Assembly: GCA_964388455.1 (NCBI GenBank)
Contig: CAYMAN010000005.1
Location: 2,920 to 66,919, forward strand
Direction of reading: 5' to 3'
Source of the DNA: an uncultured Eubacteriales bacterium
GTDB lineage: Bacteria; Actinomycetota; Coriobacteriia; Anaerosomatales; JAAXUF01
Length of the DNA: 64,000 nucleotides
Below, one piece after another: positions 5,221-52,205 of this stretch. Each line of letters starts with the position of its first letter. Positions within the stretch are counted from its first letter, which is position 1. Made by a program: the position numbers and the translations under genes. The notes below the pieces were generated by a model. That model saw only the letters and a program-made list of their open reading frames with translations. It made no database searches and was not told the origin of the DNA.

Positions 5221-5276
5221 GTACTGCGTTCCTCCTGGATCGTCACGGCGTACGCCGCAGTGGCCATTCGAGCGGT

Positions 5277-11023: not shown

Positions 11024-14000
11024 CTACATCTTCTTGATACGGCAGAGGCAGATCTTGTACTCAGGAATCAAAGTGTTTGCATCCCAGGCATCGATGGTGA
11101 GGTCGTTTGCACGCGAGCCGGTTGAGAGGCCCTTCTCACCCCAGTGCCATGGAATCGCGACTACACCGACGCCTACACGCTGGTTGGTGCTCTGTCCAAC
11201 GCCCACCTTGGCGCGCCAGCCCGCTCCGTAAGGAAGAAGCTTCTGGTCTGCAAGGCCCTCGGTGCGCTTCGTGATGATCTGGACCAAGTCACCATCCTGG
11301 ATGCCGTGGGCACGCGCATCGATGGAGTTGAGCTCGATCCACGGCTCGGGCTCGAGCTCATGGTTGTACGCGTTGTTTCGCGTGATCGGGCCACCCTGGA
11401 AATGCTCGACGCAACGAATCGTGGTGAGCATGAGCGGGTAGGTGTCCACGGTACCGATGGGCGACCGCGCGTCTGAAGTGGTGATCAGGTTCGCGGAGGT
11501 GCCGGTTGTGCCGTTCTTGCCCCACGTGAGCGCGAGCGTAGGCTCTGGGGTCTCGTACGGCTCGGTGTGGCCGGGGAAGCGGCCGGTGAGCACGTGCGGC
11601 GCGGTCGAGCCACCGATGCTGGGCAGATCCTTGAGGTTGTGGTGCTTGCGATAGTTGTTGTTCGCATAGTCCATGAGATCCGTGCTGAGCGTCGAGAAGA
11701 GTCTCGAGACGCGGTCCGGACCCTGGAACCCGTCCATCTGATCGCCAGGAACCTCAGCTGTGGCATCGACCGCTGCATTGTTGTTGTACAGAACGCGACG
11801 GTTGACCAGCCAAGAGTAGCCCCACTTGTGGAAGCCATAGGACTTGTAGGGATCTTCCTGTGAGCGACTCTTCGAGCGATTGGCAACTGTCCATGCAGTG
11901 TAGTCGGCACCGAGACGCGACTTGTTGAGAGTAGAGCTGTACGCCTCGTGGTAGATCCAGATCGTTCCGCCACCGGCGTTTGAGACGACGGTGCACATCT
12001 GGCGATACAACTTCTCCGCGACGTACTCGGCGCCCGTCATCGCGCCCGTCTTGATGCCACCCTCGTGGGTGAATCCGGACTCGGTCGCGTCCTTGAAATC
12101 ATCGACGGTAGCCGTTGCGTTCGGCGTCCAGCCGTACTGGCGACCGAACAGTGAGTCATACACCGATACGAAGGTGCCAGGTGTCGCACCGTCCGTGCTT
12201 GCTGCGAACGCTGCGCCCTTAGTCCATCCGAGACCGCCGGATGCCTTGGCCGTGGTCCACTTGTTCTCGATGTGCGAGAACACGCTCTTCTCGTCAAGCT
12301 TCTTGGCGAGACGAAGCAGCAGCTCGAGATCGGTCTTGCTGTTGCCGCTGGGGAGTTTGGCCTGATAGCGCCACTGCAGTACGCGACCGGAGTTGGTTGC
12401 GCTACCGGCCTGCTCGACGTGCGCGGCAGCCGGAATCAGGTACGTTACTGCACCATCCTTACGCGGAATAGCGGCCGTCTCAGTCTCGAAGACATCCTGT
12501 ACGACCAACAGATCGAGGTTCTTGAGGCCGTCGCGCACCACACCCTGGTTGGGCTCGGTCACGGCCGGGTTCTGGCCAAGAATGAACGCAGCCTTCGTGC
12601 CGCCTGCGACCATCTTGCGGAACATGGAGATGTGATCATCGCCGTTACCCTTTGGCCAGAGGTCGTACACAGCGTTGACCTTCGTGCGCCTGTCGGCGAT
12701 GGCTGCCGTGGCGGCGTCATCAACGTAGTCGTCGGCACCAGCGGCGTAGTTCGGAGCGAACCACCGCATGGTCATGTTGTAGAAGCCCTTGGACTGCAGG
12801 TTCAGGGGTCCCGTGCCTACCAAGCCCCATGTGCTACGAGTGAACGCGTCATCGTACGGGTTGGTGCCCATGTTCATGCGGTTGCCCCACAGGCCGTCCA
12901 TGTACTTACCGAACGCATTGACGTCATTCTTAGTCGAGTCCGAGTGACCAGCGCTCATCACCGTCGGGTTGCCCGAGTACGCAGGGATGTTGCCGAACAG
13001 CAGACCCATATCCGTGGAGCCCTGAACGTTGTGGATTCCACGAAGGGCGTTGATTCCGCCGCCCGCACGACCCGCGTTACCCAGAATGGTCTGGAGGTTG
13101 GCGAAGCCCTTGACGTTCTGCGAGCCACACGTGTGCTGGGTGATTCCCATTGCGTAGAGAATCGTGGTCGCACGATAGCCGGATGCGTAGGGCGTCTTGA
13201 CAAGACCCGTCAGCGGATCCGCGTCGCCTGCGCCGGTGTAGCTAGCCATGCGGCTGTGCTTGATCATTTCTTCGGCAACCGCAACAAGCTCGGCCGGGGT
13301 ACACCCGCAGATATCGGCAACAGTGGCCTCGTCATACGGTGCGACCTGGGCTTTGAGCTTCTGGAAAACACTGTCCGCATCGGTGATGTCGTTCGCGGCA
13401 ACAGGAAGCGCCGTGAACTGGAATGCAGCGTCCCACCAGCCCATACCGAAGTACAGGTTTGCCAGGCTATCTGAATACCAGAGTGCCCAGCTGGTACCGA
13501 CCTGGGCGACCACTGGACGCGCGGTGCCTGCGCTGGCGGTCACGCCCGGCAAACCCTTGATGTAACCGGTCAATCCGGCAGCCACAACAGGCCGCGTGAA
13601 GGTCAGGCCATCGGCGGAAGTTGCCGTGCTGATCTTCTGGATCTGATCCGTCAAGCTGTACCCAACGTACAGGAGCTGGTATGCAGCGCCGTTCTTGACA
13701 ACCATCGGGTGCATGACGCGATAGCTATCCCAGCCAGTCGCCGCAGGTGAAAGAGCCGGTACGGGACCGCCGACGACAGCCTCGAACGAGGCGTTGAAGG
13801 TGGTTGCGTCCCAGGTACCGGGCGCGTCCGTCGTGAAGCCCTGATACAGCTTGTACTCAGCGGCTGGATTCCCACGACCCTGGAAGTAGAGGCGATATGT
13901 CGCTCCATCCTTCAGGACCATAGGACGGTCGTACTTGTAGATGGTCATGCCCGCACTGTCGGTGACAGGTGTCGTCACCGGATCGAGGATGACGGCTTCG

Positions 14001-15526
14001 GCGCCCCATGTCAGGCCATCAGCAGAGCTGCGAATGGTGAGTTTACGATCCGCATCGTTGTTGACCATGTAGTACACGCCGGACTCAAGCCAGACGAACG
14101 GTGCATCGGCGCCGTCGGAGACGTTGGTATCGACACCCGTCGTCCACGTGTTGCCGTCCTTGGAGGTCGCGAACTGGATGTTCGTCTCCGCGCCTACAGC
14201 CGAGACGTACCACATCTTGTACTTCTTGGCGGCGTCAGTCTCCGCTGCGTCAAACACAACTGTCGGTGTGTTAGCGGCATATCCGGTTGCAGCAGCCTTG
14301 TTGTAGCGCTGATAGTCGCTGCCCACCGAGTTGATCTTCAGGCGTGCATCGGTGTACTTGGAGCGATCCGCGGCCGTAGCTACGCCGCCCCTAGCACCGT
14401 CGGGGATGAACGTCTGCGTCTGCTTCTGGTTAAGGAAGGCGTCGAAGTGAGTCTTGTACTTCTCCGTTGCAGCTGCGCCGTCCGCGATGTTGTTGATGAT
14501 GTAACGAATCAGGCCGTTCTGGAACGCGATGTCTGTTCCGGGACGGATACGCACATACATGTCCGCCTGCGTCGCGGTGCGCGTCTTGCGCGGATCGATG
14601 ACGATCATCTTCGCCGCGGGCTTTGCACTTATGTCGCCGTTAGGCAGAACCTGGTTGGCGGTCTTGGCGCGGTTGATGTGCGCCATGCACGCCGGATGGT
14701 TCTCTGCCGGATTAGCTCCCCACGCGATGACAAGCGTCGAGTTCGCGATATCTGTCCAGCTGTTGGTCATTGCTCCACGTGCGAATGCGGCGGCCAGACC
14801 GGCCACCGTTGACGAGTGTCATATTCGCGCCTGATGCTCGACGTTGCTGGTACCGAAGTTCGCGATGAGTTTGCGGTACAGATAGTTGCCTTCGCTGTTC
14901 ATGTGCGAACTACCGAAGAACGCAACGCCCTTACTGTTGTAGCCGTTCGCGGCCGACGGTGCTGAAACACCGGCGCCACCAACGTTGTCACGTGCGGCCT
15001 TGAGGCCGTCTGCGATCTCATCCATCGCCTGGTCTAGCGGCATCGCCGTCCACGCGGTGTTAACGCCTGATGCAGTTCCTGTGGACTTGTACGCGACGCC
15101 GTTAGGAGCAGCCGGGTCGGCAAGGAAGGCATTGCTGCCTGCAGGGTGGTTGAGACTGCCGCCGAGCTCAGGCGAGCCAGCTTCCCACGCACCGATACGA
15201 CGAGAGTTGTTCACGAGCTGAAGAGAGCCCGCACCCTTGGAGCACAGACCGCCGGTATTGAAGACGGACTCGAAATCGCCATAGATGTCGACGACCTTGC
15301 CAGATGATTTCTCAACGACTACTCGCTGCCCGCAACTAGCGGAACAGTAAGGACAGGTGGTTGTGGTGATCGTGTAGGCGGCCATTCCCTCGTACGCCGC
15401 TGCCTTTGCAGGGTCGTATGCGAAGTTGAGACCGCAACCAACCACCGCTGTTGCAGCAGCGGATGACTTCAGAAAGTCTCTACGTGAGAGTCCTGAGGCC
15501 CCCTGCCCGGTGTCTTTAGTTGCCAT
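11024..15526 (-). CDS. Tat-exported selenocysteine-containing molybdo/tungstopterin oxidoreductase, formate dehydrogenase (FdnG)-like, 1500 aa with internal beta-propeller-like insertion
   Basis: Track ORFs 14819..15526 and 11024..14806 are in the same frame and separated only by TGA 14819-14821. The joined reading is ...NVEHQARI-U-HSSTVAGLAAAFARGAMTNSW, which matches the FdnG/FdhF Sec context. Tat signal SRRDFLKSSAAATAVVG. N-terminal FeS motif CPYCSASCG...C. C-terminal pterin-binding region ...LTTIRCVEHFQGG... Confidence 0.85.
14789..14807 (-). promoter_or_regulatory. SECIS-like hairpin 11 nt 3' of the UGA codon
   Basis: GGUGGCC-GGUCU-GGCCGCC forms a 7-bp stem with one G-U pair. The GGUCU loop resembles the E. 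coli fdhF SECIS apical loop. Confidence 0.65.
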
Positions 15527-16046: not shown

Positions 16047-17543
16047 CTAGCGTTCATTCTGCCGATCGTTTGCGCCGAAATATCGTGCAATGAACTGCTC
16101 CGCATCAAATGTGCCAATCTCCGCTAAACGCGCAAGGCGCCGGAGATCCAAATCCTCGGTGCACAGACCCCGAGCACGATCAGCAAGTGCAAGGAGAATC
16201 GCCTCGCGCTCACCGATGTCGAGCTTCTCGCGCATCGCACGCACATCGGACTCCGAGTACTCCTCGGCCTGGATAAGCGTGCCAAGATCGACGTCGCCAA
16301 CGATGCGGCCCGCGTATAGCGCGTGGTCCATCTCAGGACAGAGCAGACGCAGCTTGCGCTTGGAGGCCACTTCGGCGATCACATCGCGCTGAATGAGCAC
16401 CTCGACGAACTCCGGTGAGACGACTAGGCGGACCTTTCTGAGCATCAACGGAATCAGGAGCAGAAGGAGCGGCAGGAGACACAGCGCCCAACCCCACGGC
16501 GTGCTGGGGGTGACAACTCTCGGGATGGGAGCAACCGGCCAGCCCCATACCTGGACCTGATCGTTCTCGCGGTCGGTGACGTAAATGCGGCCGTTCTTAT
16601 CGAGCGCCACATCTGCGGGATAGTTGAACTGACTGGGACCAAATCCCTTGGAACCGAACTGAACCAGCTGCTTGCCATCGAGATCGTAGATGTCCACGAC
16701 ATGTGCGAGAGCGTCGACCGCGAACAGATGCTTGGAATCCACAGCCAGACCGCGAGGAATACCCGATGAGTCGATGATGCGGATCAATTCGCCGGTTGGC
16801 TTGAACACCTGAATGCGACGGTTGTTGGAATCCGAGACGTAGACAGCGCCGTTCTTCGCCACAGCGATACCACTTGGAAAGAAGAACTCGCTCGGCGAAT
16901 CGATCACCGAGTTGGCCTGAACTGTCTTGCCGAACGTGACCGTTCGGCTGCCCTCGGTGGAGAAGAAGATGACTCTGTGTCGGTCCGTTGCGCCGACATC
17001 AGTGACTCTCGGCGCACCTGATGTGTCAAAGGAGATTGCCAGTGGAGCCCAACTGAACTTGGGTTCACCCTCCGGCGTGAACGTCCTCAGGTACTTACCC
17101 TCGAGGTCGTAGACGTAGATGGTCCTGAAGCGGCGCTCGGTTACCCACACCTCGGAGCCCTTGATGGCGACGTTCACTGGCGAGCGAAGTCGACCCTTGC
17201 CAGTGGTGCCGAACGAGAAGAGATACCTGCCGCGCGGAGCGAACACGCTCATCCGCCGATTGCCCGCGTCAACGACGTACACGCGGCCATCCGCGCCGAT
17301 ATCGACTCCGGCAGGGCGTCTGATCTGACCCTTGCCTTCGTCTCCGGTGATGGAGAACAGATACTGCGGCGCTGTCAACGCCGCTTGTGGCTCTCCCAAC
17401 TTCACAGACGGCAGGCTCTGGTTCCTCACAAAGTAGAACGTCGCATATGAAAGCAACGCGAGCAGCAAGAGGAGCAGAGCAAGCAGGATGACACGTTTGC
17501 GCTTCTGACGACGAGTTAGAGGCTGACGCGTGCTACTTGCCAT
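16047..17543 (-). CDS. Bitopic membrane protein: TM, NHL-repeat beta-propeller, TM, PIN-like C-terminal domain (paralog B)
   Basis: Same architecture as 3718..5220. Blades include VYVVDAGNRRMSVF, VWVTERRFRTIYVY, VYVSDSNNRRIQVF and IYVTDRENDQVQVW. TM2 is ALCLLPLLLLLIPLML, followed by RK. The start overlaps the upstream TPR gene by 11 nt. Confidence 0.8.
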   Translation of the reverse strand: MASSTRQPLTRRQKRKRVILLALLLLLLALLSYATFYFVRNQSLPSVKLGEPQAALTAPQYLFSITGDEGKGQIRRPAGVDIGADGRVYVVDAGNRRMSVFAPRGRYLFSFGTTGKGRLRSPVNVAIKGSEVWVTERRFRTIYVYDLEGKYLRTFTPEGEPKFSWAPLAISFDTSGAPRVTDVGATDRHRVIFFSTEGSRTVTFGKTVQANSVIDSPSEFFFPSGIAVAKNGAVYVSDSNNRRIQVFKPTGELIRIIDSSGIPRGLAVDSKHLFAVDALAHVVDIYDLDGKQLVQFGSKGFGPSQFNYPADVALDKNGRIYVTDRENDQVQVWGWPVAPIPRVVTPSTPWGWALCLLPLLLLLIPLMLRKVRLVVSPEFVEVLIQRDVIAEVASKRKLRLLCPEMDHALYAGRIVGDVDLGTLIQAEEYSESDVRAMREKLDIGEREAILLALADRARGLCTEDLDLRRLARLAEIGTFDAEQFIARYFGANDRQNER

Positions 17544-18537
17544 TGTTCACCTTTTCCAGACCGGCCTTCGCCGACGCATTGTTGGGTTCGATCACCAGGA
17601 CGCGCTGATACATCTCTGCGGCATGCTTCTTGGCACCCGTCTTGACCGCCAGGTCGCCGAGCAGGATGAGTGCCTCGACGTTCTGTGGTTCAAGAGCCAC
17701 CGCGATGCGTGCCTCGATCAGCGCGGCTTTGGGGTCCTTGGCTGCCTTGGTCTTGGCCGCGGCGAGGCGATCACTGAAGGGCCCGAGCTCATCCAGTGCA
17801 TCCTGCGGCAAGTCCACATTGGGGGCCGCGGCGATCGACGTGCGCAGGTGTTCTGCGGCCCCGGCCTTGTCGCCGTCCTTGAGGAGGAGGAGTGCGTAGT
17901 CGTAGTTCGCCTCGGGCATCTTGGGGTCGAACAGCAGCGTGTTCTCGAGCTCCTCGCGGTACTTTGAATCAGAACCCAGCTTGCTGTAGGTGAAAGCCAA
18001 TGCATAGTGCGTGTCCGAGGCGTCGCGTCGGAGAAGAATGGCCTTCTTGTAGTAGTTCGCGGCCTCCTCGTACTCCTTCTGCTCCATGAGCGCAGTGCCC
18101 AAGTAGAAGTACGCGATCTCGAGTTGCGCATCCGGACCGCTCTTGTGCTTGGGCTCGAGTATCGCGATCACTCGGCGGAAGTACGTCTCCCCCTCGGCGA
18201 ACTGCTTGCGCTGCAGGGCGAGAAAACCGATGCCTGAGATCGCAGGCGCGAAGTCCTTGCTGATCTTGAGTGCGGCCTCGTACTGCACCACCGCGTCCTT
18301 GTCCCGACCGGCGACCGCGAGAGCCTGCGCGAGCTGCATGCGTGCGTCGATGTCATTGGGGTTCTTGCGAACCCTGGCCTCGACAGCAGCGACCGCGCGC
18401 GCAGCGGGCGTTGAGTCAACGATCTGACGGCCCTGAGCCCAGACCGAATAGCCAAGATATGCGCCAAGAACAAGCACCACAACGGCTATGGCTGCTATGA
18501 CGGCGTCAAGCGGGCGGATGTTTCTGACAGTGGACAC
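17533..18537 (-). CDS. Membrane-anchored TPR-repeat protein (paralog B)
   Basis: N-terminal TM AVIAAIAVVVLVLGAYLGY followed by TPR-like repeats, e.g. ALKISKDFAPAISGIGFLAL and TLLFDPKMPEANYDYALLLL. GTG start with SD AAGGGAG. Confidence 0.75.
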   Translation of the reverse strand: MSTVRNIRPLDAVIAAIAVVVLVLGAYLGYSVWAQGRQIVDSTPAARAVAAVEARVRKNPNDIDARMQLAQALAVAGRDKDAVVQYEAALKISKDFAPAISGIGFLALQRKQFAEGETYFRRVIAILEPKHKSGPDAQLEIAYFYLGTALMEQKEYEEAANYYKKAILLRRDASDTHYALAFTYSKLGSDSKYREELENTLLFDPKMPEANYDYALLLLKDGDKAGAAEHLRTSIAAAPNVDLPQDALDELGPFSDRLAAAKTKAAKDPKAALIEARIAVALEPQNVEALILLGDLAVKTGAKKHAAEMYQRVLVIEPNNASAKAGLEKVNNGK

Positions 18538-18580: not shown

Positions 18581-20221
18581 CTAGATGTTCAGGTCGGTAT
18601 GGCAGCGCAAGCACAACGACGCTCCGGGATACGGAGCGATGATCTGATTCTGATAGTCGACCGCACCGTGGCAGCCATAGCACAAGCGAACGTCGTGCCC
18701 TGCGTTCGGCAGACTCCCGGCGGTCCCATCGTGCGCTGGCGACGACGCAGCGGTTGAGAACCCGATATGGCAGTCATCACAAGTGTACGGCTTCCCATCG
18801 TACGGTTTGCCACCTCGGGTCGTTCCGGTTTTGAAGTGCACGGCGTGCTCGGCGAAGCCCTTGTTCTTGATGGAAGTGGGCGGCTTCTTCGTCATCTCTT
18901 CATGGCACGGTACGCAGTTCTTCGAGATGAGCTCCGCCTTGGCGACCTTCTGGTGGTGGCAGTTCTGACACGTGGCCCGATTCGTGTGGCACACATTGCA
19001 GTCATCGGTCGTCACGCCGGGAGCCGGCCGGTGATTCTCGATCCAGCCGGTGGGGTGCGGCATGACGGTCTTGTGGCATCGCTGGCACGACTTCGCGTCA
19101 TGACACGAACCACACGCGCCCTTGCCGCCAAGGTACAGCGGTCCGTGCTTGGTCTTCCAGTCGGCCTTGAGATGGTCCTTCGGTACGACCGACTTGGCGG
19201 GCGCATTTGGCGATTCACTCTTGCCTGTGTGGCACTTCACACAGAAGGCGGACTTGTGACACATGGCGCAGTACGCAGGGTCAGCGTTGGCCGTCTTCTG
19301 GTGTTTGCCCCGCACAAACGACTTGGTGTGATTCTTGGGAACCAGGTCGAAGCTCTTGGGGTGGCACTTGAGACACGCGTCCCCGGCGACGAGCCCCTGT
19401 GTCGAATGCTCGAGCCCGTGGCACCGGTAGCAGGACAGCATCTCGGGCTTGGTCGCGCCATCTGCCGTGTGTCCGAACGTCGGGTGGCACACGCTGCATT
19501 TGTAGTTGCGCTCGACGTGCGCCGAGTGGGCGAAGATGAGCGGCCCGGGCATGAAAGCGTCAAGATTGGGATGGCAGTAAGAGCACTGCGACATCGTCGT
19601 CGAACCCGTCGGATAGATCTTGATCGATGGGTCTTTCGCCTTCTCGGTGATTATTGAAGCGTATGTGGGAGGCATGGGCGGGATATCGAGATTCTTGTCC
19701 TTGTGGCAGACGTCGCAGTCTTTGACGGACTCATGGCACATCATGCACTGGTTGACACCGGAATCGTTGGCGACGTCGGCGTGGGGCTTGTTGGGCCAGT
19801 CTTTGACGTGACTCTTGGGGCGCAGCGTCTTTGACTTCGTGTGGCACTTGTTGCACTCGGCGGTTGCGAGTTCGCCCTGAGGTCCATGCGAAACGCCGTG
19901 GCACGCGAAGCACACTTCCATCGGGACCGTCTCCGTGACGCCGTCCCGGTGGGGCATGCGGGCATGGCAACCGTCGCAAGCGACCATGAGATGGTTTCCG
20001 TGGCTGAAGATCAATCCCGGCTGGTTGACCGAGCCCAAGTCGAGGTGACACGGCACGCACTGTGAGCGGTCGACGGAAGCTGCGGTGTCGATGACCGGAT
20101 CGGGCGAACCTGGTGTCGCGGCCAATCCGAAACGCACAGAAGCAAGCAGGAAGGCGGCCACGAGAACAGTCGCGGCCACCCCCCAAACCCAGTTATGTCG
20201 ATTGTGTCGTGCGTCAATCAC
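18581..20221 (-). CDS. Membrane-anchored multiheme c-type cytochrome, 20 CxxCH motifs
   Basis: N-terminal TM VWGVAATVLVAAFLLASV. I count 20 CxxCH motifs, from CVPCH and CDGCH through CYGCH and CLRCH. GTG start with SD TAGGGAG. Confidence 0.85.
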   Translation of the reverse strand: MIDARHNRHNWVWGVAATVLVAAFLLASVRFGLAATPGSPDPVIDTAASVDRSQCVPCHLDLGSVNQPGLIFSHGNHLMVACDGCHARMPHRDGVTETVPMEVCFACHGVSHGPQGELATAECNKCHTKSKTLRPKSHVKDWPNKPHADVANDSGVNQCMMCHESVKDCDVCHKDKNLDIPPMPPTYASIITEKAKDPSIKIYPTGSTTMSQCSYCHPNLDAFMPGPLIFAHSAHVERNYKCSVCHPTFGHTADGATKPEMLSCYRCHGLEHSTQGLVAGDACLKCHPKSFDLVPKNHTKSFVRGKHQKTANADPAYCAMCHKSAFCVKCHTGKSESPNAPAKSVVPKDHLKADWKTKHGPLYLGGKGACGSCHDAKSCQRCHKTVMPHPTGWIENHRPAPGVTTDDCNVCHTNRATCQNCHHQKVAKAELISKNCVPCHEEMTKKPPTSIKNKGFAEHAVHFKTGTTRGGKPYDGKPYTCDDCHIGFSTAASSPAHDGTAGSLPNAGHDVRLCYGCHGAVDYQNQIIAPYPGASLCLRCHTDLNI

Positions 20222-20244: not shown

Positions 20245-21585
20245 CTAGTCGCCGCCCAGCCCACGAATGCGGGCGATCAGTTGAAGCAGTGCGTTCTGTT
20301 CCTGGGCCTCGCCCTTACGATGGATCAGTTCGCCCGCGGCGGCACCGAACTCCTCGCTCGATCCCTTGTGGCAACCTTCCTGGCCGCACGTCGTGCCGAT
20401 GTTCTTGGTCGAGACGCTGGATGCGGCATTCGCACTAGGAAGAACCTCGTGCGCCTCATGGCACTGCCAACATGCGGGTGAATCTGCGGCGCCGTTCTTG
20501 TATGCACGCCCATGATAGTAGTCATTGTACGTCGCGTAATCGTCGCCGTGCTGCTTACAGCGGGCGCAGGTGCGATAAGCCGATCCATGCATACGCAGCT
20601 TGCCGGCCTCTGTCGCGGTACTGTAGATGAAGTGACCGCCGTGGCAGGATGCGCAGGTGGCCGACTCGTAGTCACCTTCGAGCAGCTTCTCGGAGTGAAC
20701 CGACTTGCCGTACTCGGCGACCGGGTCCTTGAGCTTCGGCTCCTCGAGATCCTGATGGCACGTGCCACACGCGATGCCGGCGTTGATGTTCCATAGCTTG
20801 GTCACACCTGGCTTGTCGTCGTAACGATAGTCCGGGTGACACTGCTGGCATGTGTTTTCGCGGTGCGCAGAGTCATCGACTCCGGCCACCTCGAACGATT
20901 TGGCTGCGCCGGCCGACTGCTTCAAGAGCGTCGAACTGCCGTGACACGACTGACAGCCGTTGTCACTGTCGAAGTCCCACCCGGTCGACGGGGTCCAGTC
21001 GATGTTCTCGCGGAGGTGACAGTCCACGCAGTCGGCAGCCTTATGACACATCATGCACTTGGTGTTGAGCGCATCGTTCGAAGGCTTGACGTGCGGTTTC
21101 TGTGCCCAATCCGCGGTGTGGAAGGCGGGGCGAAGACGCCACTTAGGCGTCACGTGACAGGCATCGCAATTGTCCTTGGCGATGATACCCATCGAGCCGT
21201 GGCGCAGTCCGTGGCAGTCGAAACAGCCCTTCATGGTCGGGCGCTCAGTGCCGGTCTTACGGTGAGGGAATCGCGGGTGACAACCGCTGCACTGCACGAT
21301 GATGTGGTTGCCGTGCGAGAACTTGATCGACGATGAGTAATTCTTGGAAAGTGCGATGTTGCCGTGACACAACGTGGTGCACGCTGCACCATCGACCTGC
21401 GAGCCAGCGAGCTGGTCGAAGAGCTGTGTGATAGAAGCGGAGCCCGTCGTGAGATCGATCTCGTCGACCGGCACGGCGTCCGCAGCGAAGACGAACGACG
21501 TTGATGCGATAACGGTACAGAACGCTGCCGTCGCGAGTGCGAAGGCGAGCAGCCTGCCGGGGCGTGCTCTGAACCTGAAGGTCAT
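20245..21585 (-). CDS. Secreted multiheme c-type cytochrome: 10 CxxCH plus CX3CH, CxxCK and CX4CH sites
   Basis: Signal peptide MTFRFRARPGRLLAFALATAAFCTVIASTSFVFA, from ATG 21585 with SD GGAGAAGGGG; the track start 21816 is rejected. Variant motifs are CTTLCH, CARCK and CGQEGCH. The N-terminal half is homologous to the 20-heme protein and the C-terminal part to the 7-heme protein. Confidence 0.8.
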   Translation of the reverse strand: MTFRFRARPGRLLAFALATAAFCTVIASTSFVFAADAVPVDEIDLTTGSASITQLFDQLAGSQVDGAACTTLCHGNIALSKNYSSSIKFSHGNHIIVQCSGCHPRFPHRKTGTERPTMKGCFDCHGLRHGSMGIIAKDNCDACHVTPKWRLRPAFHTADWAQKPHVKPSNDALNTKCMMCHKAADCVDCHLRENIDWTPSTGWDFDSDNGCQSCHGSSTLLKQSAGAAKSFEVAGVDDSAHRENTCQQCHPDYRYDDKPGVTKLWNINAGIACGTCHQDLEEPKLKDPVAEYGKSVHSEKLLEGDYESATCASCHGGHFIYSTATEAGKLRMHGSAYRTCARCKQHGDDYATYNDYYHGRAYKNGAADSPACWQCHEAHEVLPSANAASSVSTKNIGTTCGQEGCHKGSSEEFGAAAGELIHRKGEAQEQNALLQLIARIRGLGGD

Positions 21586-21644
21586 GCTGTCGTACCCCTT
21601 CTCCCCGTTGGGCCCTCTTGGGAGCGCCCAACGCACTGATGGTC

Positions 21645-22646
21645 CTATCCTGCGAACAGTGATCTGACTGAATCGATCATCGATCGAACCGCAGTCCGTA
21701 CCGTGCTCACAGCCGCGTACAGAGGGTTCTCGTCGTACACCTGCTGCGCGCTGTGCACGAGCACGCCGAAGTCGAGGAACGTATCGTCCATCTCGCCTGC
21801 GTGACAGGTGCCACACGTCTCAGGAAGGTTGTTGCGGTTGACCGCAGACTTGCGGTCGTCGGCAGCAAGCACTTGATGCGTCTCGTGACACTGCCAGCAG
21901 GCAGGAGCGTCTGATGCGCCCACCTGATAGGCGCGGCCATGGTAGTAGTCCATGTACTCGACCGTGTACTTCTCGTGGCACGACCCGCACATGGCGACCG
22001 CTGAGGCGCGAACGGCCTCGTTGCCCGCCGTGTCTTCTTTGCTGGGAATACCGTGTCCGCCGTGGCAGTCGCCACACAGAGGACGCGGCTTGCCCGGTGC
22101 CGAGGAATCGGCTGCGCCGACGGTGGACGAGCTGTCTCCGGGACGGCCTGCCGGCGAGTGCGCCCCACTGGTGTAGAGCGTGAACGCGTCTTTGTGGCAG
22201 TTCTTGCAGGACAGCTTGGCCACCTCGCGCCACTCTTCACCGTTCTTTACGATGGTGTCATGGGGCGTCTTGTACGCGAAGTCGACGTGGCAGCTGGTGC
22301 ACGGCACGTTCTTGTGCGCCGAGCCCTGAATTATCTCCGTGTCGACGTACAGGGAGATGATCTTGCCGGCCTGGATCCGCATGAGATTCTGGTCACCGTG
22401 GCACACGCCGCAACCCGACTTGCCGGCGGTCGGCAACGTCCAGTCGAGGTCGTACGTGGGTTTCAGCGGAGCCTTCTTGGTGACAGTCGCGGTCTTGGTC
22501 GCCGACTTAGACGAGGCAGTGACCGACGCGGGGACAGCTGGCATCGCCGTTGAAGTGGTGGCGGGGGCCGCCAAAGAGACCCCCGGAAGCCCAATGGCTA
22601 CCGCAAGCGCACCAGCAACAATGGTCGAGCGCAGAATCATCCGCAA
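21645..22646 (-). CDS. Secreted heptaheme c-type cytochrome
   Basis: Signal MRMILRSTIVAGALAVAIGLPGVSLA. Seven CxxCH motifs: CGVCH, CTSCH, CKNCH, CGDCH, CGSCH, CWQCH, CGTCH. The start is TTG 22646 or ATG 22640. Confidence 0.85.
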   Translation of the reverse strand: MRMILRSTIVAGALAVAIGLPGVSLAAPATTSTAMPAVPASVTASSKSATKTATVTKKAPLKPTYDLDWTLPTAGKSGCGVCHGDQNLMRIQAGKIISLYVDTEIIQGSAHKNVPCTSCHVDFAYKTPHDTIVKNGEEWREVAKLSCKNCHKDAFTLYTSGAHSPAGRPGDSSSTVGAADSSAPGKPRPLCGDCHGGHGIPSKEDTAGNEAVRASAVAMCGSCHEKYTVEYMDYYHGRAYQVGASDAPACWQCHETHQVLAADDRKSAVNRNNLPETCGTCHAGEMDDTFLDFGVLVHSAQQVYDENPLYAAVSTVRTAVRSMIDSVRSLFAG

Positions 22647-22658: not shown

Positions 22659-23522
22659 CTAGACCTGGTCTGCCACGGGTACCGCCGGAGCGTGCTCCAT
22701 ACCGGGAGCCTTGGCATCGTGCGCACGGTCATCGCCATGTGCGTCACCGTGATCGCCATGCTCGGCGTGGGGCCTGTCCAGAAAACCCAGACCGAAGAAG
22801 TCCAGGAACGCCGGGAGGTCCTCGGTGACTGAGAGGTACACGTGAATCGTGGTGAGAACAATGAACAGCCAGTTGATGAGGTAGTGGATGGTTCTGACCC
22901 ACCACACACCGCTGGCGCCGATGAGTCCGGCAACAAGCTGCTGGAGGCTGACATCGACGATCGGCAACATGAGTCGCCAGAGCATCAGGCCGGTGATGGC
23001 CTGTGCGATCAGCAGCGGCACGAACAGCGTGTACGTGCCCTTCTGCATGATGTTGTACTTGCCCAGGTGCGGCTTGGACGGCTTCACGAAGATGTAATAC
23101 AGAATGACCTTCGGGGCCGTGGTGAGGTCGCGCTTGCTGATGGCGAACTCGCGATAGTCACGACGGCGCGAGCCGAACGCGTACCACAGGCGCACGATCA
23201 GGTTGACGATCACGATGATCATCGCGATGTAGTGCACCCACTGCATGAACGCACGGCCACCGTTGAAGAACGGGAACCGAATGTACATGCCCGACACGCC
23301 CAGCGCGATCATGGCAGCGACGTGCTGGAAGTGCAGAAGCTTGGGAAGTGCAGGAATAGGTCCGCCTTCATGCGCAGGCCACTCCCAACCGACAAACCTT
23401 CGTTTAGCGCGACCAGTCAGGATGTTGCCGAGGAAGTGGCCTGAGAGCGCCACAACAATCACCACATAGAGCGTGGTGAACACGACATCGATCCAGACGT
23501 TAAGCTGCGTCAGTCCGATCAA
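22659..23522 (-). CDS. Integral-membrane b-type cytochrome (Ni/Fe-hydrogenase / FdnI-type cytochrome b family-like) with His/Asp-rich C-terminal tail
   Basis: Four to five TM helices carry conserved His residues (LLHFQHVAAMIAL, WVHYIAMIIV, VRTIHYLINWLFIVLTTIHVYL). Tail: RPHAEHGDHGDAHGDDRAHD. TTG start with SD GGGAGTAGGGGG. Confidence 0.65.
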   Translation of the reverse strand: MIGLTQLNVWIDVVFTTLYVVIVVALSGHFLGNILTGRAKRRFVGWEWPAHEGGPIPALPKLLHFQHVAAMIALGVSGMYIRFPFFNGGRAFMQWVHYIAMIIVIVNLIVRLWYAFGSRRRDYREFAISKRDLTTAPKVILYYIFVKPSKPHLGKYNIMQKGTYTLFVPLLIAQAITGLMLWRLMLPIVDVSLQQLVAGLIGASGVWWVRTIHYLINWLFIVLTTIHVYLSVTEDLPAFLDFFGLGFLDRPHAEHGDHGDAHGDDRAHDAKAPGMEHAPAVPVADQV

Positions 23523-25160: not shown

Positions 25161-25646
25161 CTAGCCGTGCCCGCCGCCGCACACCATCTCGACCGCATGC
25201 TCGAGCTGGGGTGCGATGAAGCCGAATGACTCTCGGGCGGCCTTCTCGGAACCGGGAAGGTTGATGATGACGGTCTGGCCGCGCTGCGCGGCGGTCGCGC
25301 GCGAGAGCATGGCGCGCTTGGTGACTTTGAGTGACTCGGAGCGGAGGTACTCGGCGATGCCGGGGACGGGGCGCTCAGCGATGTCCATGGTGGCTTCGGG
25401 GGTTACGTCGCGCGGACCGAGGCCGGTGCCGCCGCACGAGAAGACGATATCGGCATCCTCGACGTCACACATCTCGGCGAGCGAGGCGGCGATACACTCA
25501 CGATCGTCGGGGCAGACGTGGTAGGCGACTACCAGCCAGCCGGCTGCCTCGGCGAGCTCGATGAGCGCGCGGCCGGCGGTGTCCTCGGCCTCACCTGCAG
25601 AACGGGTGTCGGAGCAGGTCAGGACGCCGATGCGGAGTTCTGCCAC
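25161..25646 (-). CDS. MogA/MoaB-family molybdopterin adenylyltransferase-like protein
   Basis: VAELRIGVLTCSDTRS...FSCGGTGLGPRDVTPEA...INLPGSEKAA. GTG 25646 with SD GGAAGGGGAG; the track start 25892 (Pro/Arg-rich) is rejected. Confidence 0.8.
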   Translation of the reverse strand: MAELRIGVLTCSDTRSAGEAEDTAGRALIELAEAAGWLVVAYHVCPDDRECIAASLAEMCDVEDADIVFSCGGTGLGPRDVTPEATMDIAERPVPGIAEYLRSESLKVTKRAMLSRATAAQRGQTVIINLPGSEKAARESFGFIAPQLEHAVEMVCGGGHG

Positions 25647-25650
25647 GGTG

Positions 25651-26256
25651 CTACTCCCCTTCCGGGCTTGTGGTGACGCGGTTGCAGTTCTTCTCCGAGC
25701 GGGCCTCGGCTTTGGCGGCCTCCTCGGCGGCCTCCTTGGCGCGCTCGGCTGCGAACTCGGCGATGGACTCGGGCGAGGTGCGATCGCAGGTGCCGTCGCC
25801 GATAGAGAGCGTGGTGATGGTGTCGCCGACCTCGACGTCGCCGGCCTGGCGGACCACGGCGAAGATGCCCTCGCGCGGCATGACACAGTCACCGGCCTGG
25901 TAGTAGATGGCGCACTTGGTGTGGCAGACCTTGCCGATCTGGCTGATCTCGAGAATCACCGAGTCACCGATCTGGATCTGGCTGCCCATGGGCAACGCGA
26001 GCAGGTCGATGCCGGTGGTGGTGATGTTCTCGGCGAAGTCCCCGGCGTCCACGTCGAGGCCCTTGGCCTGCATGGTGCCGATCGACTCTGCCGAGAGGAG
26101 CGAGACCTGGCGATGCCAGTCGCCCGCGTGCGCGTCGGTGTCGAATCCTCGGTCGAGGATGAGGGTGCCGCGGGTGCCGGGTGTCTTGCGCATGGTCTTC
26201 TTGGGGCTCAGGTTGACCGAGGTTACGGTGCCGGGGCCGGGCAGGGGTGCTGTCAT
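25651..26256 (-). CDS. MOSC-domain protein
   Basis: Beta-barrel MOSC-like core ...HRQVSLLSAESI...GDFAENITTTGIDL...GKVCHTKCAIY. ATG 26256 overlaps the moaC stop as TGATG. Confidence 0.65.
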   Translation of the reverse strand: MTAPLPGPGTVTSVNLSPKKTMRKTPGTRGTLILDRGFDTDAHAGDWHRQVSLLSAESIGTMQAKGLDVDAGDFAENITTTGIDLLALPMGSQIQIGDSVILEISQIGKVCHTKCAIYYQAGDCVMPREGIFAVVRQAGDVEVGDTITTLSIGDGTCDRTSPESIAEFAAERAKEAAEEAAKAEARSEKNCNRVTTSPEGE

Positions 26257-26876
26257 CAGGTGTTCTCCTCGCGGGTCCACAGGCCGGACTTGCCGCCTTC
26301 TTTGCGAAGCAGGCAGACGTCTGAGATGACCATGCCTCGGTCAACGGCCTTACACATATCGTACACGGTCAGCGCAGCGACGCTGGCTGCCGTGAGCGCT
26401 TCCATCTCGATGCCGGTCTTGCCGTCGACTTCGACGGTGGCCGTGATGCGGATTCCGGTGCGCGCGCTGAGTGCCGGGCCGTTCGACGGCGCGGGAACGG
26501 CGGAACGCTCCGGCACGAGCTCGACGGCAGCGTGGGTGATGTTGAGCGGGTGGCACATCGGGATGAGCTCGGCGGTGCGCTTGGCGGCCATGATGCCGGC
26601 GATGCGCGCCGTGGCGAGCACGTCGCCTTTGGGTGCCGAGCCGGTCACGATCATCTCGAGGGTGGCAGGTGCCATCGCGATGAAAGCGCCGGCGACGGCC
26701 ACGCGATGGGTGACGGGCTTGTCGGCGACGTCGACCATACGTGCGGCGCCCGTGGCGTCCAAGTGCGTGAGTGCGCCCGGCGCGACGTGGACGGCGGGGT
26801 GCTGCGGGGTGTCGGGCGCGGCGGTGGGGGTGTCGGGTGTGCCCGTGGGGGGCGTGTCGGGGGTCTCGGCGGGCAT
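26256..26876 (-). CDS. moaC: Cyclic pyranopterin monophosphate synthase MoaC with Pro/Thr-rich N-terminal repeat
   Basis: [16 protein letters not shown]...[29 protein letters not shown]...[23 protein letters not shown]. Confidence 0.9.
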
Positions 26877-26879
26877 GGG

Positions 26880-27913
26880 TCAGCCTCCGATCTGGGACAT
26901 GCGACGGTCGGTTCCGACGCGGTCCTGGTGGTTTTCGGGCTTGTCGTGCAGGCTCTGGCGGATGACGGCGCGGATGTCGTCGTCGGTGCCGGAGCGGAGT
27001 ACAGAGCGCACGTCGAGTTCTGCGTCCGAGAAGAGACACGGACGCAGGCGACCGTCGGCGGTGAGTCTCAGGCGGTTGCATTCACTGCAGAAGTGGTGCG
27101 ACAGCGGCGAGATGACGCCGATGGTCCCGGGCGCGCCGGAGAAGCGGTAGTACTTCGCGGGTCCCCAACCGCCCGGTGCCGAGTCGCGCTCGACGGCGAC
27201 GAGCTCGCCGAGACCGGCAGCGACACCCTCGGCTGAGATGCGGGCGATGACCTCGTCGGACGGCATGGTGTCGTCGCGCGTCCAGCCGTCGGTCTCTACG
27301 CCGCCGTCGGAGTGGCAACCCGCGCCCTCCTCGGCGATTCCGACGGGCATGTACTCGATGAAGCGTACGTGCAGCGGACGATCGAGCGTGAGCTTCGCGA
27401 AGCCGAGCAGGTCCTGCTGAAGCGAGCGGACCACGACGACGTTGAGCTTGATGGGCTTGAAGCCGACGTCGAAGGCCGCGTCGATGCCGGCGAGTGCGTC
27501 GGCGAGCTTGCCTCCGCGGGTGATGCGCTCGTAGACGTCGGGGTCAAGCGAGTCGAGGCTGATGTTGACGCGCTCGAGGCCGGCGTCGCGCAGATCGTGC
27601 GCGAACTTGGGCAGCAGCGTGGCGTTGGTAGTCAACGCGATGGACTCGAGGCCGGTGATGGCGCGGAGGCGACGCACGTGGTCGACGACACCGTGTCGGA
27701 CCAGCGGCTCGCCGCCGGTGAGGCGGATCTTGCCGATGCCTTCACCCACGGCGATTCCGGCGAAGCGTTCGATCTCCTCGAGGGAGAGCATCTCGTCATG
27801 CGGCTTGAAGGCTACGCCCTCGGCGGGCATGCAGTAGACGCATCGCAGGTTGCAGCGATCTGTCAAGGAGATGCGGAGGTAGTCTATGCGGCGACCGAAT
27901 GTGTCTGTGGCCA
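26880..27913 (-). CDS. moaA: GTP 3',8-cyclase MoaA (radical SAM)
   Basis: DTFGRRIDYLRISLTDRCNLRCVYCMP, and C-terminal CSECNRLRLTADGRLRPCL. GTG 27913 follows the mobB TAG directly, with SD GGAGGAG. Confidence 0.9.
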
Positions 27914-28519
27914 CTAGATCTCTCCTCCGTCCGGCGTGGTCCCCGAGGGCACCGTGCTCAGACAGTCCTCGTCGCCTTCGGCTCCTGCGGAACTGCGCGC
28001 GGTACCCCCGGGGACCACGCCTGCCAGGTAGCGGGTGCACACCATATCTGCCACTGCGATTGCATCCTCTAGACCGAACAGCGGGACGCCTTCAGGTGCT
28101 AGATCCGGGTTGTCGGTCACCAAGGCCACTAGCTCCTCCGGGGTGGAGATCAGGGACTCGCTTCTTGCTCGCCTCGATATCTCGATGCGTTGAGTGGCCT
28201 CGCGCTTGAAGCCCTCGGTGAGGAGGATATCGGCGCCAGAGTCAGTGGCGATCGTCGCCAGCTCTGGCAGCGTGTACTCGCGCTCTACTTTTGCGATGAG
28301 ACTGAACTTATCGGGGCTTGAGACCATTGTGGTGACGGCGCCGGCTCGGGCGTGGCGCCAGGAGTCCTTACCGGGGACGTCGATGTCGTAGTCGTGGACG
28401 TGGTGCTTCACGGTGGCTACGCGCACGCCTCGGCTCGAGAGCTCGCGGATGAGCTTCTCGAGGAAGGTGGTCTTGCCGGAGTCGCCCTTGCCGACGATGG
28501 AAACGATCGGAACCGTCAC
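27914..28519 (-). CDS. mobB: Molybdopterin-guanine dinucleotide biosynthesis adapter MobB
   Basis: P-loop IVSIVGKGDSGKTTFLEKLI...VATVKHHVHDYDIDVPGKDSWRH. The GTG start overlaps the upstream TAG as TAGTG. Confidence 0.85.
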   Translation of the reverse strand: MTVPIVSIVGKGDSGKTTFLEKLIRELSSRGVRVATVKHHVHDYDIDVPGKDSWRHARAGAVTTMVSSPDKFSLIAKVEREYTLPELATIATDSGADILLTEGFKREATQRIEISRRARSESLISTPEELVALVTDNPDLAPEGVPLFGLEDAIAVADMVCTRYLAGVVPGGTARSSAGAEGDEDCLSTVPSGTTPDGGEI

Positions 28520-28737
28520 TAGAAGCAGCCGAGATCGCAGTTGTGGACGCGCACTCCGGCCATATCCGCGGCGGTACCGGCGACCTTGTACGGGATGCCG
28601 GTGTCCTCGGCGAACTTGCGAAGCACAGGGCATGTGACCTTTTCGTCGACGGACTTGGCCTTGATGGCGTCCATCATTTCAGGTGTGACCTGCTCGACCC
28701 AGCGGGGATCGTGTGTCTTGGGACCCTTGTCGCTCAT
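28519..28737 (-). CDS. Small conserved-looking protein of unknown function, C-terminal HNCDLGCF
   Basis: 72 aa, translationally coupled on both sides (ATGA with moeA, TAGTG with mobB). Codon usage looks coding. I recognise no family. Confidence 0.5.
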   Translation of the reverse strand: MSDKGPKTHDPRWVEQVTPEMMDAIKAKSVDEKVTCPVLRKFAEDTGIPYKVAGTAADMAGVRVHNCDLGCF

Positions 28738-31481: not shown

Positions 31482-31589
31482 CTTCCCTTACCCTTCACGG
31501 CCGTAAGCAGCCGATGCTTCGTGGCGAGGCGATGCCTCGATTGTCGCACACACGCGGAATCCGGAGTGCCGGCCCGGGTTCGCGCGTTC

Positions 31590-33418: not shown

Positions 33419-33442
33419 CAGGCTACCCGTCCCCGGTTGCTG

Positions 33443-50553: not shown

Positions 50554-50711
50554 ATCTGGGGCATTGTCCCGACGCGGATAGGCCCTGTCAAACGCCGGCT
50601 GACTGATGTCGCCGTATGAGGATGTTCTCATCACGCTCTCATGCGCCCTTCACGACCGTTGTCGATTCTAGGTATAGGCACTTCTCCCGCACCCGGCAGA
50701 CAGGCGAGACG

Positions 50712-52205
50712 ATGGCGCAGGCAAAGGCGTGGATCGCGAGGAATCGGTTCTTCGCGATCTTGGGCGGCCTGGCACTGGCGATGGTCCTCGGCGCCGCGTT
50801 CGTCGGTGTGGCCGGCGCGACCAGCTCGCCTTCCTTCTGTCGCGCCGCGTGTCATGAGATGAGGCCGTACCACGACGCTTGGGCCACCGGCCCACACAAA
50901 GGCATCTCCTGTATCGAGTGTCACGTCGATCCCGGTGCCGTCGCTCAGCTCAAACACAAGGTGGTCGCCCTCGGCGAAGTCGCCACCCACTTTCGCGGCG
51001 ACACGTCGTTCCCACGCGAGGTGCAGGCCGAGGTTCCCAGTGAACGATGCGTCCGTTGCCACTCCAAGATCTCGATCGTCAGCACCGGGTTCGATCATGC
51101 CGTCCACGCCAGGCGCGGCCCCTGTACGCAGTGCCATGCGGATGCAGGCCACAAGGTCACCATCACCGCGCTGAAGGCTGCCGGCTACTACAGCGGGTTC
51201 ACAGGCACCGGCGCGTCAGCCGAGAGCACCACCGCGATCGTCGATCGTGGCCGGGCCGACCTTCCCGGCCACGTGAGCATCTCGTGCTCGCGCTGCCACG
51301 TGATGTCGGCAAACACGTGCTCGGGATGCCATAAACCCAAGCACCCCGCCCGCGGCGAATGCGGCACCTGTCACGCGACAGGCGCGGAGTTCATCTTCAC
51401 GCACCCCGTTGACCGACCCGACTGCAAGTCCTGCCACACTCCCAAGCCCACGCACACGAAGTCTTCTTCCCCGACGACCCGGTGCGTGACCTGTCACAAG
51501 CAGCCGGGCGTCAAGTGGTCGTTCACGCACCCTTCGAAGACCTCCGATTGTGAGTCGTGCCACGCCCGTCCCGCCAAGCACCGCGCCGGTACCTGCACTC
51601 AGTGTCACGCGGCCGGCGGCAGCTGGAAGTTCAAGCATCCCGCCGCAAAGTCAGACTGCCAGTCCTGCCACAACAGGCCGTCCGGCCACAGATCCGGCTC
51701 GTGCACGACGTGCCACTCCGTCGGCTCCTCTTGGGCATTCAGGCACCCGAGCAACGGTTCCTCCTGCGCGACATGTCACAACCGCCCGTCCGGTCACCGC
51801 TCAGGTTCGTGCACCTCGTGTCACTCGACCGGCTCTCGATGGAGCTTCAGGCACCCTGGCAACGGCGTATCGTGCTCGTCATGTCACAACCGTCCCTCTG
51901 GTCACAAGTCCGGATCGTGCAGCACGTGTCACTCCGTCGGCAAGCGCTGGACCTTCAGGCACGGATCATCGAGCAAGTGTTCCTCGTGCCACCGGGCACC
52001 GTCGAAGCACTACGGCACAAGCTGCTCACGCTGCCACTCGCCGAGCAGATCGTGGAAGAGCGCATCGTTCCGTCACCCAGGCATACCGGGCGGAGAGCAC
52101 CGCTACACCTCGTTCTCCTGTGTGAAGTGCCACCCCGGTGACGGTCGCGGCCCTGGTCACTACTGCAGCTGCCACGGCAACACGTCTGGTCCCGACGACG
52201 ATTAG
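50712..52205 (+). CDS. Membrane-anchored NapC/NirT/NrfH-like cytochrome fused to a long tandem di-heme repeat region (about 20 heme sites)
   Basis: TM FFAILGGLALAMVLGAAFVGVAG. NapC-like FCRAACHEM (one residue longer than the canonical FCxSCHEM), then CIECH, CVRCH and CTQCH, followed by 16 further CxxCH motifs. ATG 50712 is preferred over the track start 50616. Confidence 0.8.
   Translation: MAQAKAWIARNRFFAILGGLALAMVLGAAFVGVAGATSSPSFCRAACHEMRPYHDAWATGPHKGISCIECHVDPGAVAQLKHKVVALGEVATHFRGDTSFPREVQAEVPSERCVRCHSKISIVSTGFDHAVHARRGPCTQCHADAGHKVTITALKAAGYYSGFTGTGASAESTTAIVDRGRADLPGHVSISCSRCHVMSANTCSGCHKPKHPARGECGTCHATGAEFIFTHPVDRPDCKSCHTPKPTHTKSSSPTTRCVTCHKQPGVKWSFTHPSKTSDCESCHARPAKHRAGTCTQCHAAGGSWKFKHPAAKSDCQSCHNRPSGHRSGSCTTCHSVGSSWAFRHPSNGSSCATCHNRPSGHRSGSCTSCHSTGSRWSFRHPGNGVSCSSCHNRPSGHKSGSCSTCHSVGKRWTFRHGSSSKCSSCHRAPSKHYGTSCSRCHSPSRSWKSASFRHPGIPGGEHRYTSFSCVKCHPGDGRGPGHYCSCHGNTSGPDDD
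51516..52055 (+). repeat. Five tandem 108-bp (36-aa) coding repeats, each with two CxxCH
   Basis: Unit W.F.HP....C.SCH.RPS.H.SGSC..CHS.G.., repeated from aa 301 to ~480 in track numbering. More degenerate copies lie upstream. Confidence 0.8.

Follow-up and report, generated by a model that had tools for sequence, protein, structure and literature searches.

The 13-haem cytochrome and its haem-binding motifs

The window analysed here, a 64-kb stretch of contig CAYMAN010000005.1, carries on its minus strand a cluster of genes for multihaem c-type cytochromes (Table 1). One of them, flanked by genes for a heptahaem and a 20-haem paralog, encodes a cytochrome with 13 haem sites, three of which depart from the canonical CxxCH. 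At one of these, the CARCK motif of haem 11, a lysine takes the place of the usual histidine. We found that this lysine is part of a longer and recurrent motif, CXXCKXH, in which a histidine always follows two residues further on.

The open reading frame (ORF) of the 13-haem protein is listed as 20245-21816 on the minus strand; its true start is the ATG at 21585, with a GGGGAGAAGGGG ribosome-binding site upstream. The mature protein contains 26 cysteines, all within the 13 haem sites and none elsewhere. Eleven sites have the form C-x-x-C-[HK], CARCK among them, and the other two are CTTLCH (haem 1) and CGQEGCH (haem 13). A Pfam scan returned PF14522 (3.6e-12), PF14537 (2.7e-10) and PF02085 (3.3e-7), all above gathering cutoffs; these are generic multihaem families (c7, c3_2 and class III), with no enzyme family among the matches, and a scan against NCBIfam gave no match. 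By BLASTP, haems 1-6 match the N-terminus of the 20-haem protein (E=4e-33) and haems 7-13 match the heptahaem protein (E=1e-39); by these alignments the 13-haem protein is a fusion of a 6-haem and a 7-haem module. It resembles class III (c3/c7-type) multihaem cytochromes in its closely spaced bis-cysteine sites and its Pfam assignment. Unlike them, it is much larger, has this modular 6+7 architecture, and shows a last-haem spacer that drifts up to X16 among orthologs and paralogs.

The initial annotation of this DNA had placed each odd motif opposite a canonical site of a paralog, and our BLASTP alignments agree: CTTLCH stands opposite C-VPCH of the 20-haem protein, and CARCKQH and CGQEGCH stand opposite CGSC--H and CG--TCH of the heptahaem protein. 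To follow these sites through evolution, we compared two sets of orthologs, the 120 best hits from the database together with the query (49-90% identity; 121 sequences in total) and 76 orthologs from GTDB loci (40-90% identity). Across these ~200 orthologs the cysteines and histidines vary little, if at all, at any of the 13 sites. In an alignment of 102 orthologs, C69, C73, H74, C340 and C343 do not vary, and conservation of C400, C405 and H406 is 90% or higher. Because these residues are conserved, the odd motifs cannot be attributed to chance or sequencing error, and the claim that they are real is borne out. Since they also stand where the homologous sites have CxxCH, it is almost certain that all three carry haem, as judged from the alignments.

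The same comparison showed that the length of the spacer is not fixed. Haem 1 is CX3CH in 83 of the 121 sequences and CX2CH in 37, the latter being the form of the distant orthologs. At haem 13, 116 of the 121 sequences have CX4CH, and more distant orthologs have CX2CH, CX4CH or CX10CH; some of the distant orthologs also have CX4CH at haems 9 and 11. Thus, of the ortholog comparison that the initial annotation had proposed, conservation held for the cysteines and histidines, but not for the lysine or the spacer lengths. A similar pattern is seen in the heptahaem family, where haems 3, 5 and 7, which correspond to haems 9, 11 and 13 of the 13-haem protein, show the same motif plasticity and haems 1, 2, 4 and 6 never vary; the spacer of haem 7 there reaches CX16CH. 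CX3CH and CX4CH are both among the published bis-Cys haem c motifs (PMC11492766). We conclude that these two motifs are ordinary spacer variants, produced by spacer drift at tolerant sites with the histidine ligand kept, and that the three odd motifs lie within a small set of evolutionarily plastic sites, haems 1, 9, 11 and 13.

Long loops at the last haem form a separate observation: spacers of CX8, CX9-10 and up to CX16CH occur in the heptahaem proteins of loci L074, L030, L065 and L071 and in the 13-haem proteins L048 and P0015. These loops of the 7-haem module are comparable in length to the CX11/15/17CH motifs listed as known haem c motifs (PMC11492766), of which the CX15CH of Wolinella is matured by a dedicated synthase, CcsA1 (PMC12285233).

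Distribution of the lysine and recurrence of CXXCKXH

We next asked how the lysine at haem 11 is distributed. In the database set, haem 11 is CxxCKxH, almost always in the form CARCKQH, in 60 of the 121 sequences and CxxCH in the other 61; among the GTDB species orthologs, 16 of 76 are lysine-type and 55 have CxxCH, with 5 further genomes of the type that has its lysine at haem 9. Lysine was found at this position in no ortholog below ~49% identity and is, for that reason, a derived state. With the motif columns left out of the alignment, a neighbour-joining tree shows at least 11 changes of state at haem 11, as against ~60 for shuffled states. H-type sequences nested among K-type ones retain the K-type residue T352, a sign that they may have lost the KQ dipeptide secondarily. 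The initial annotation had read CxxCK as a possible sign of a catalytic haem of the NrfA nitrite reductase type, and had itself named variability among orthologs as evidence to the contrary; the near-even split between K and H therefore counts against the strong form of that reading.

Where the lysine is present, it does not vary. In K-type sequences, down to ~50% identity, K344, H346 and G347 are 100% conserved and Q345 is about 96% conserved. The columns that covary with the lysine are purely local (K344, Q345, G347 and T352), and no other column does so. This conservation indicates strong purifying selection on the lysine in every sequence that has it.

The histidine two residues after this lysine, which the initial annotation had overlooked, proved to be a constant companion. 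CxxCK is followed by x-His in 70 of 70 cases among the database hits, in 27 of 27 among the multihaem cytochrome ORFs of 80 orthologous loci, and in 4 of 4 (as KQH, KPH, KDH and KEH) among 149 distant representatives of the heptahaem-module superfamily. In these same 149 representatives, CxxCH is followed by x-His in only 26 of 1581 cases (1.6%). Altogether, CxxCKxH occurs in more than 100 sequences, at four sites in two paralogs and with at least four origins, and the x-His is there without exception.

Two mutational routes lead to this motif. At three sites a dipeptide has been inserted with the downstream register kept: at haem 11 of the 13-haem protein (CARC-KQ-HGDDY versus CARC-HAEQY), and, in heptahaem orthologs, at haem 3 (CKNC-KQ-HQPQF..Y versus CKNC-HKDAF..Y) and haem 7 (CGSC-KY-HQDVNE versus CGAC-HPDVNE). 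At haem 9 of the 13-haem protein, a histidine has instead been replaced by lysine inside an existing CxxCH[DE]H, with no change in length; this haem 9 lysine clade has a single origin. From these alignments we conclude that CARCK is part of CXXCKXH, formed by insertion of a Lys-x dipeptide between the second cysteine and the ancestral proximal histidine. We further conclude, again from the pattern of substitution, that lysine and histidine are both needed: if only the lysine mattered the histidine would drift, and if only the histidine mattered any dipeptide could be inserted. Searches of the literature for CXXCKXH or CXXCXXH as a haem motif returned only unrelated papers on zinc sites, hydrogenases and MIF, and as far as that literature goes CXXCKXH is an undescribed variant of haem c attachment.

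Ligation and maturation of haem 11

The candidate distal ligands are the same in proteins with lysine at haem 11, with lysine at haem 9, and with histidine at both. Outside the motifs, 11 histidines are invariant, H333 is conserved in ~90% and H156 in ~77% of sequences, and M118 is invariant in about 200 orthologs. The 20-haem paralog has M118 as well; taken together, these observations point to one His/Met haem within the six-haem module. As candidates for the 13 haems, these residues would fit mostly bis-His ligation with one possible His/Met haem. Similarly, K-type members of the heptahaem family keep all seven extra histidines, consistent with bis-His ligation of every haem in that paralog. 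About 10% of orthologs have glutamine in place of H333, and H156 varies; one haem may therefore lack a sixth ligand in some species. Two other candidates were considered and set aside. The invariant K363 (in YYHGRAYK) is an unlikely distal lysine ligand, as K, R or Q occupies the corresponding position in the all-bis-His heptahaem family; and the +2 histidine of CxxCH[DE]H is not a substitute for a lost distal histidine, as all the other candidate histidines are still present.

The reading that we consider best, and put forward tentatively, is that haem 11 is an electron-transfer haem with altered proximal ligation, six-coordinate and non-catalytic, and a link in a conserved respiratory wire of the Coriobacteriia. 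We favour the view that the 13-haem protein works like a c3/c7-type electron-transfer multihaem cytochrome in which one haem has been re-ligated. A Lys-x dipeptide would have been inserted between the second cysteine and the old proximal histidine, and both residues then kept. The lysine would take the canonical ligand position, in the NrfA register, and so shift the ligation and potential of one haem, which would remain six-coordinate and non-catalytic. The histidine two residues on would be needed most plausibly for an ordinary System II synthase to recognise the site and attach haem without an NrfI-type lyase. We favour lysine as the ligand since both routes, insertion and substitution, always bring in a lysine. 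We favour histidine as the handle for the synthase since close relatives gain and lose the motif freely, and a new lyase for every gain would make such turnover difficult. Among System II organisms, CXXCK needs NrfI in Wolinella, and the maturation route elsewhere is an open question (PMC12285233).

A rather unlikely extension of this reading is that CXXCKXH is a distinct, self-sufficient attachment motif in which the +2 histidine acts as an iron-ligating handle for the ordinary ResBC/CcsBA synthase. If so, a single 6-bp insertion could install a Lys-ligated (or Lys/His-switchable) c-haem at any tolerant site. This would explain the free gain and loss of the motif among close relatives, and would partly answer how System II organisms that lack NrfI mature CXXCK haems.

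The lysine haem of NrfA is five-coordinate, lies in a His/Tyr/Arg pocket and has a dedicated lyase (NrfI or NrfEFG). We think it improbable that haem 11 is a haem of this kind, serving an enzyme such as a nitrite, hydroxylamine or sulfur-oxyanion reductase and matured by its own lyase. CxxCK is indeed the active-site motif of NrfA, in which the lysine directly after the second cysteine (Cys2+1) binds the iron, as the register of K344 would allow; K/H interchange at that position is likewise seen in NrfA, those of Campylobacter and Anaeromyxobacter having CXXCH (PMC12285233). In addition, OcwA, a wire-like surface cytochrome of Gram-positive extracellular electron transfer, combines haems of mixed coordination, some with open coordination sites, with slow nitrite reduction (PMC6703420), and the incomplete conservation of H333 could be taken in the same sense. 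However, close orthologs carry histidine at haem 11 in half of cases and all distant ones do, within an identical operon; the state flips repeatedly; and no distal histidine is lost with the lysine, an unchanged distal set that argues against an opened catalytic site. The NrfA motif, CWTCKSPD, has no histidine at +2, and the presence of K-x-H at three other haem positions is hard to square with one dedicated active site. PF02335 (Cytochrom_C552, the NrfA family) was not matched in the Pfam scan of the 13-haem protein. A profile of the 13-haem family did match NrfA weakly in the Protein Data Bank (PDB; E=3.5e-5), through two overlapping stretches over haems 5-9 with independent E-values (i-E) of 0.23 and 0.11, but the hidden Markov model alignment places the NrfA CWTCK opposite haem 5 (CMMCH), not haem 11. 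We rejected this match as a sign of membership, since neither stretch is significant by itself and haem 11 falls outside both. Beyond this marginal match no solved homolog of the family was found in the PDB, where sequence searches with the heptahaem and 20-haem paralogs also gave no usable homolog. The initial annotation had suggested a search for lyase paralogs. A regular expression for the WWD motif of CcsA/ResC, by which CcsB/ResB are undetectable, gave 0 matches in the window and in 80 loci with their 10-kb flanks; no ResB/ResC/Ccs or other cytochrome c biogenesis gene is among the Pfam-scanned ORFs of the window; and no gene family within 10 kb was specific to K-type as opposed to H-type loci. 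By sequence, then, the 13-haem protein is not a member of the NrfA family, because it lacks the family domain, its lysine haem is not homologous to haem 1 of NrfA, its lysine varies among orthologs and its neighbourhood includes no lyase gene. The proposal of a catalytic lysine haem with a dedicated lyase is for these reasons not supported; of the broader phrase used in the initial annotation, a catalytic or specially ligated haem, the second half is fair, given the conservation of the lysine where it is present, and the first is unlikely.

A closer competitor, unlikely in our estimate though less so than catalysis, comes from a cytochrome of the NrfH type. In this alternative, the old histidine, now at Cys2+3, still binds the iron (CXXC-xx-H), and the part played by the invariant lysine is secondary, for example pairing with a propionate in a salt bridge or tuning charge or potential. 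The precedent is haem 1 of Desulfovibrio vulgaris NrfH, whose proximal ligand is Met49 at Cys2+3, two residues past the motif histidine (PMC3279761), and the K-x-H of haem 11 has the same i, i+2 architecture as the H-x-M of that CXXCHXM; the NrfH haem is, unlike haem 11, a membrane-bound, quinol-oxidising, high-spin haem of another family and role. A site of the NrfH type also occurs in this window, in a NapC-like protein with 20 haem sites. Its N-terminus matches D. vulgaris NrfH (PDB 2j7a_C, E=1.9e-8, residues 10-147), with CRAACHEM opposite CT-SCHIM, and TIGR03153 matches it at E=1.6e-14, below the curated cutoff. It has the N-terminal transmembrane helix, tetrahaem domain and CXXCHXM haem 1 of the NrfH/NapC/NirT group, except that the spacer is X3, and a repetitive multihaem tail of about 16 haems is fused to this quinol-dehydrogenase module. 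On this alignment, CRAACHEM represents the quinol-site haem in a CX3 form that keeps the ligand methionine; the remark in the initial annotation that the first site of this protein is CX3CH is thereby upheld, FCRAACHEM following the helix at the position of the NrfH motif. For a histidine ligand at haem 11 speak also the 100% conservation of H346, the exact register kept at the three insertion sites when histidine is aligned on histidine (H-x3-Y; H-x3-F-x2-Y; H-x-DVNE), and the invariant glycine that follows in K-type sequences and suggests a special backbone turn. The same alternative predicts, however, that any dipeptide could be inserted, and lysine comes first in the insertion without exception, in over 100 sequences with four or more origins; at haem 9 it is the canonical histidine itself that is replaced, and specifically by lysine. 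In the AlphaFold2 (AF2) model, residues 326-346 form a helix that, by helical wheel, would turn H346 off the canonical ligand direction, at low confidence. Combining the two positions, Lys344 and His346 could alternate as proximal ligand in a redox- or pH-linked switch that gates the wire. On the proximal side the two residues are neighbours and neither varies, and both Cys2+1 (in NrfA, PMC12285233) and Cys2+3 (in NrfH, PMC3279761) are able to ligate the iron of a c-haem; such alternation would nevertheless be a surprising outcome. That the site is simply degenerate, a CxxCK without haem or a product of neutral drift, is scarcely credible: K and H states do often interconvert among close relatives, but about 200 sequences all keep C340 and C343, the lysine, histidine and glycine are fixed in K-type sequences as described, and convergent origins reach the same motif.

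Several points weigh against our preferred reading of a lysine-ligated electron-transfer haem. The AF2 model has a predicted local distance difference test (pLDDT) score of 72 overall and of about 55-60 near the CARCK motif, and a Foldseek search of the PDB with it gave no meaningful match; apo models of multihaem proteins are known to match poorly in comparisons of this type. By the NrfH precedent, His346 rather than Lys344 may bind the iron, and we regard this assignment as nearly as good as that of a lysine ligand. With H333 only ~90% conserved, the module may include a five-coordinate haem, and a dedicated lyase may be encoded elsewhere in the genome, beyond the window and the flanks searched. 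Finally, most of the sequences compared are from metagenome-assembled genomes (MAGs), and the tree is a neighbour-joining tree only.

To our knowledge, the non-canonical haem c motifs are few (CX3CH, CX4CH, CX11/15/17CH, CXXCK and CXCK), and each lysine or long-spacer motif known to us has been linked with a special catalytic haem and with a lyase dedicated to it. We likewise know of no precedent for a proximal-side ligand switch in a covalently bound haem c. CXXCKXH is a lysine motif within a wire-type family, always with the +2 histidine, reached repeatedly by two mutational routes and with no lyase gene nearby. If the histidine lets the housekeeping synthase mature the site, it would provide a testable rule for substrate recognition by System II and a simple route to engineer Lys-ligated haems into multihaem wires. 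If the histidine is instead the ligand, the site would be a second example of Cys2+3 ligation, after the methionine of NrfH. In addition, genome surveys in which CXXCK serves as a marker of NrfA-like catalysis would give these cytochromes a wrong annotation.

The conserved operon and its surroundings

The cluster runs in the order cytochrome b, 7-haem, 13-haem and 20-haem cytochromes, TPR protein, NHL protein, molybdoenzyme, 4Fe-4S subunit, hexahaem cytochrome, two uncharacterised proteins, a further TPR/NHL pair and hydrogenase; the last of these is represented by a gene for a NiFeSe-type hydrogenase small subunit further along the same strand. The cytochrome b is the presumed link to the quinone pool, and the 7-, 13- and 20-haem proteins all carry N-terminal signal or anchor sequences.

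Table 1. Positions of the 13-haem cytochrome gene, its sites and other features of the window.
Feature	Position in window	Strand	Evidence or remark
Membrane b-type cytochrome (Ni_hydr_CYTB / FdnI-like, b561-like)	22659..23522	-	Pfam, NCBIfam; first gene of the cluster
Heptahaem paralog	21645..22646	-	7 CxxCH and 7 invariant extra His
13-haem c-type cytochrome, 446 aa, signal peptide or anchor	20245..21585	-	ORF, motifs, Pfam, BLASTP
Haem 1 site CTTLCH (CX3CH)	21364..21381	-	residues 69-74
Haem 11 site CARCKQH	20548..20568	-	CARCK, residues 340-344, 20554-20568
Haem 13 site CGQEGCH (CX4CH)	20368..20388	-	residues 400-406
Candidate ligand M118	~21232-21234	-	
Candidate ligand H156	~21118-21120	-	
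Candidate ligand H333	~20587-20589	-	
Invariant K363	~20497-20499	-	
20-haem paralog	18581..20221	-	N-terminal 6-haem module homologous to haems 1-6 of the 13-haem protein
TPR protein	17533-18537	-	conserved 3' of the cytochromes
NHL beta-propeller protein	16047-17543	-	conserved 3' of the cytochromes
Tat-exported formate-dehydrogenase-like molybdoenzyme, selenocysteine	11024-15526	-	in-frame TGA 14819-14821, EHQARI-U-HSSTV
4Fe-4S subunit of the formate-dehydrogenase-like enzyme	10120-11010	-	
Hexahaem cytochrome	8876-10114	-	
NrfH/NapC-like membrane cytochrome, 20 haem sites	50616..52205, probable start 50712	+	transmembrane helix, PDB 2j7a_C match
First site CRAACHEM (CX3CHxM) of the NapC-like protein	50838-50861	+	position of the NrfH CXXCHXM

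A scan of GTDB species genomes yielded the 80 orthologous loci, which we compared with their 10-kb flanks. Nearly all are from Coriobacteriia or "Actinomycetota" MAGs, the closest (L001) at 90% identity. The core order cytochrome b, heptahaem, 13-haem, 20-haem, TPR, NHL is kept in nearly all of them regardless of the K or H state, and in about half the genes for the molybdoenzyme, 4Fe-4S protein and hexahaem cytochrome follow directly after a core of the TPR/NHL type. Coriobacteriia are generally taken to have a single membrane, and the combination expected of a Gram-positive electron-transfer conduit, a quinol-linked membrane cytochrome with a secreted multihaem chain in one conserved operon, is found here. 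The obligate Fe(III) reducer Parvivirga hydrogeniphila has a comparable cluster of multihaem cytochromes with a molybdopterin oxidoreductase, a combination proposed to underlie Fe(III) reduction in the Anaerosomatales (PMC9686372); in the present window, too, many multihaem cytochromes accompany a molybdopterin enzyme in a host of the Coriobacteriia type. From this gene context we infer that the cluster is most reasonably read as a respiratory or extracellular electron-transfer wire. OcwA of Thermincola had no detectable sequence match to the 13-haem protein or its paralogs, and, in contrast to OcwA, function here is drawn from context only.

The formate-dehydrogenase-like molybdoenzyme is read through an in-frame TGA and is therefore a selenoprotein; the rest of the window holds genes for molybdenum-cofactor synthesis, a ModABC-like transporter, SelA, SelB, a SelD-like gene and tRNA-Sec. 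This selenocysteine and molybdenum set, which includes MoaA, MobA-FdhD, MobB, MoeA and a MogA-like gene, lies at 50457-50553, 54950-59771 and 25161-34336, all within the 64 kb. The split ORF pair at the TGA recurs in the loci that have the molybdoenzyme (about half of the 80).

Downstream of the hexahaem gene, two ORFs of 345 and 488 aa, overlapping as listed (6456-8764, minus strand), had no Pfam or NCBIfam match. They are followed by a second TPR and NHL pair (3718-6323, minus strand), paralogous to the pair at 16047-18537 on the same strand. One or the other pair is found 3' of the multihaem cytochromes in nearly all 80 loci, and the pairs may serve to assemble or anchor the cytochromes. 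The G+C content is 0.59-0.63 across the cytochrome, formate dehydrogenase and hydrogenase cluster (window 1-24000), compared with mostly 0.65-0.70 in 24000-64000; the lower value could reflect codon or amino-acid bias, or a different origin. A tRNA-Leu(caa) called by ARAGORN at 29295-29388 on the plus strand lies inside, and antisense to, the MoeA-like ORF at 28734-30044, and is probably a false positive.

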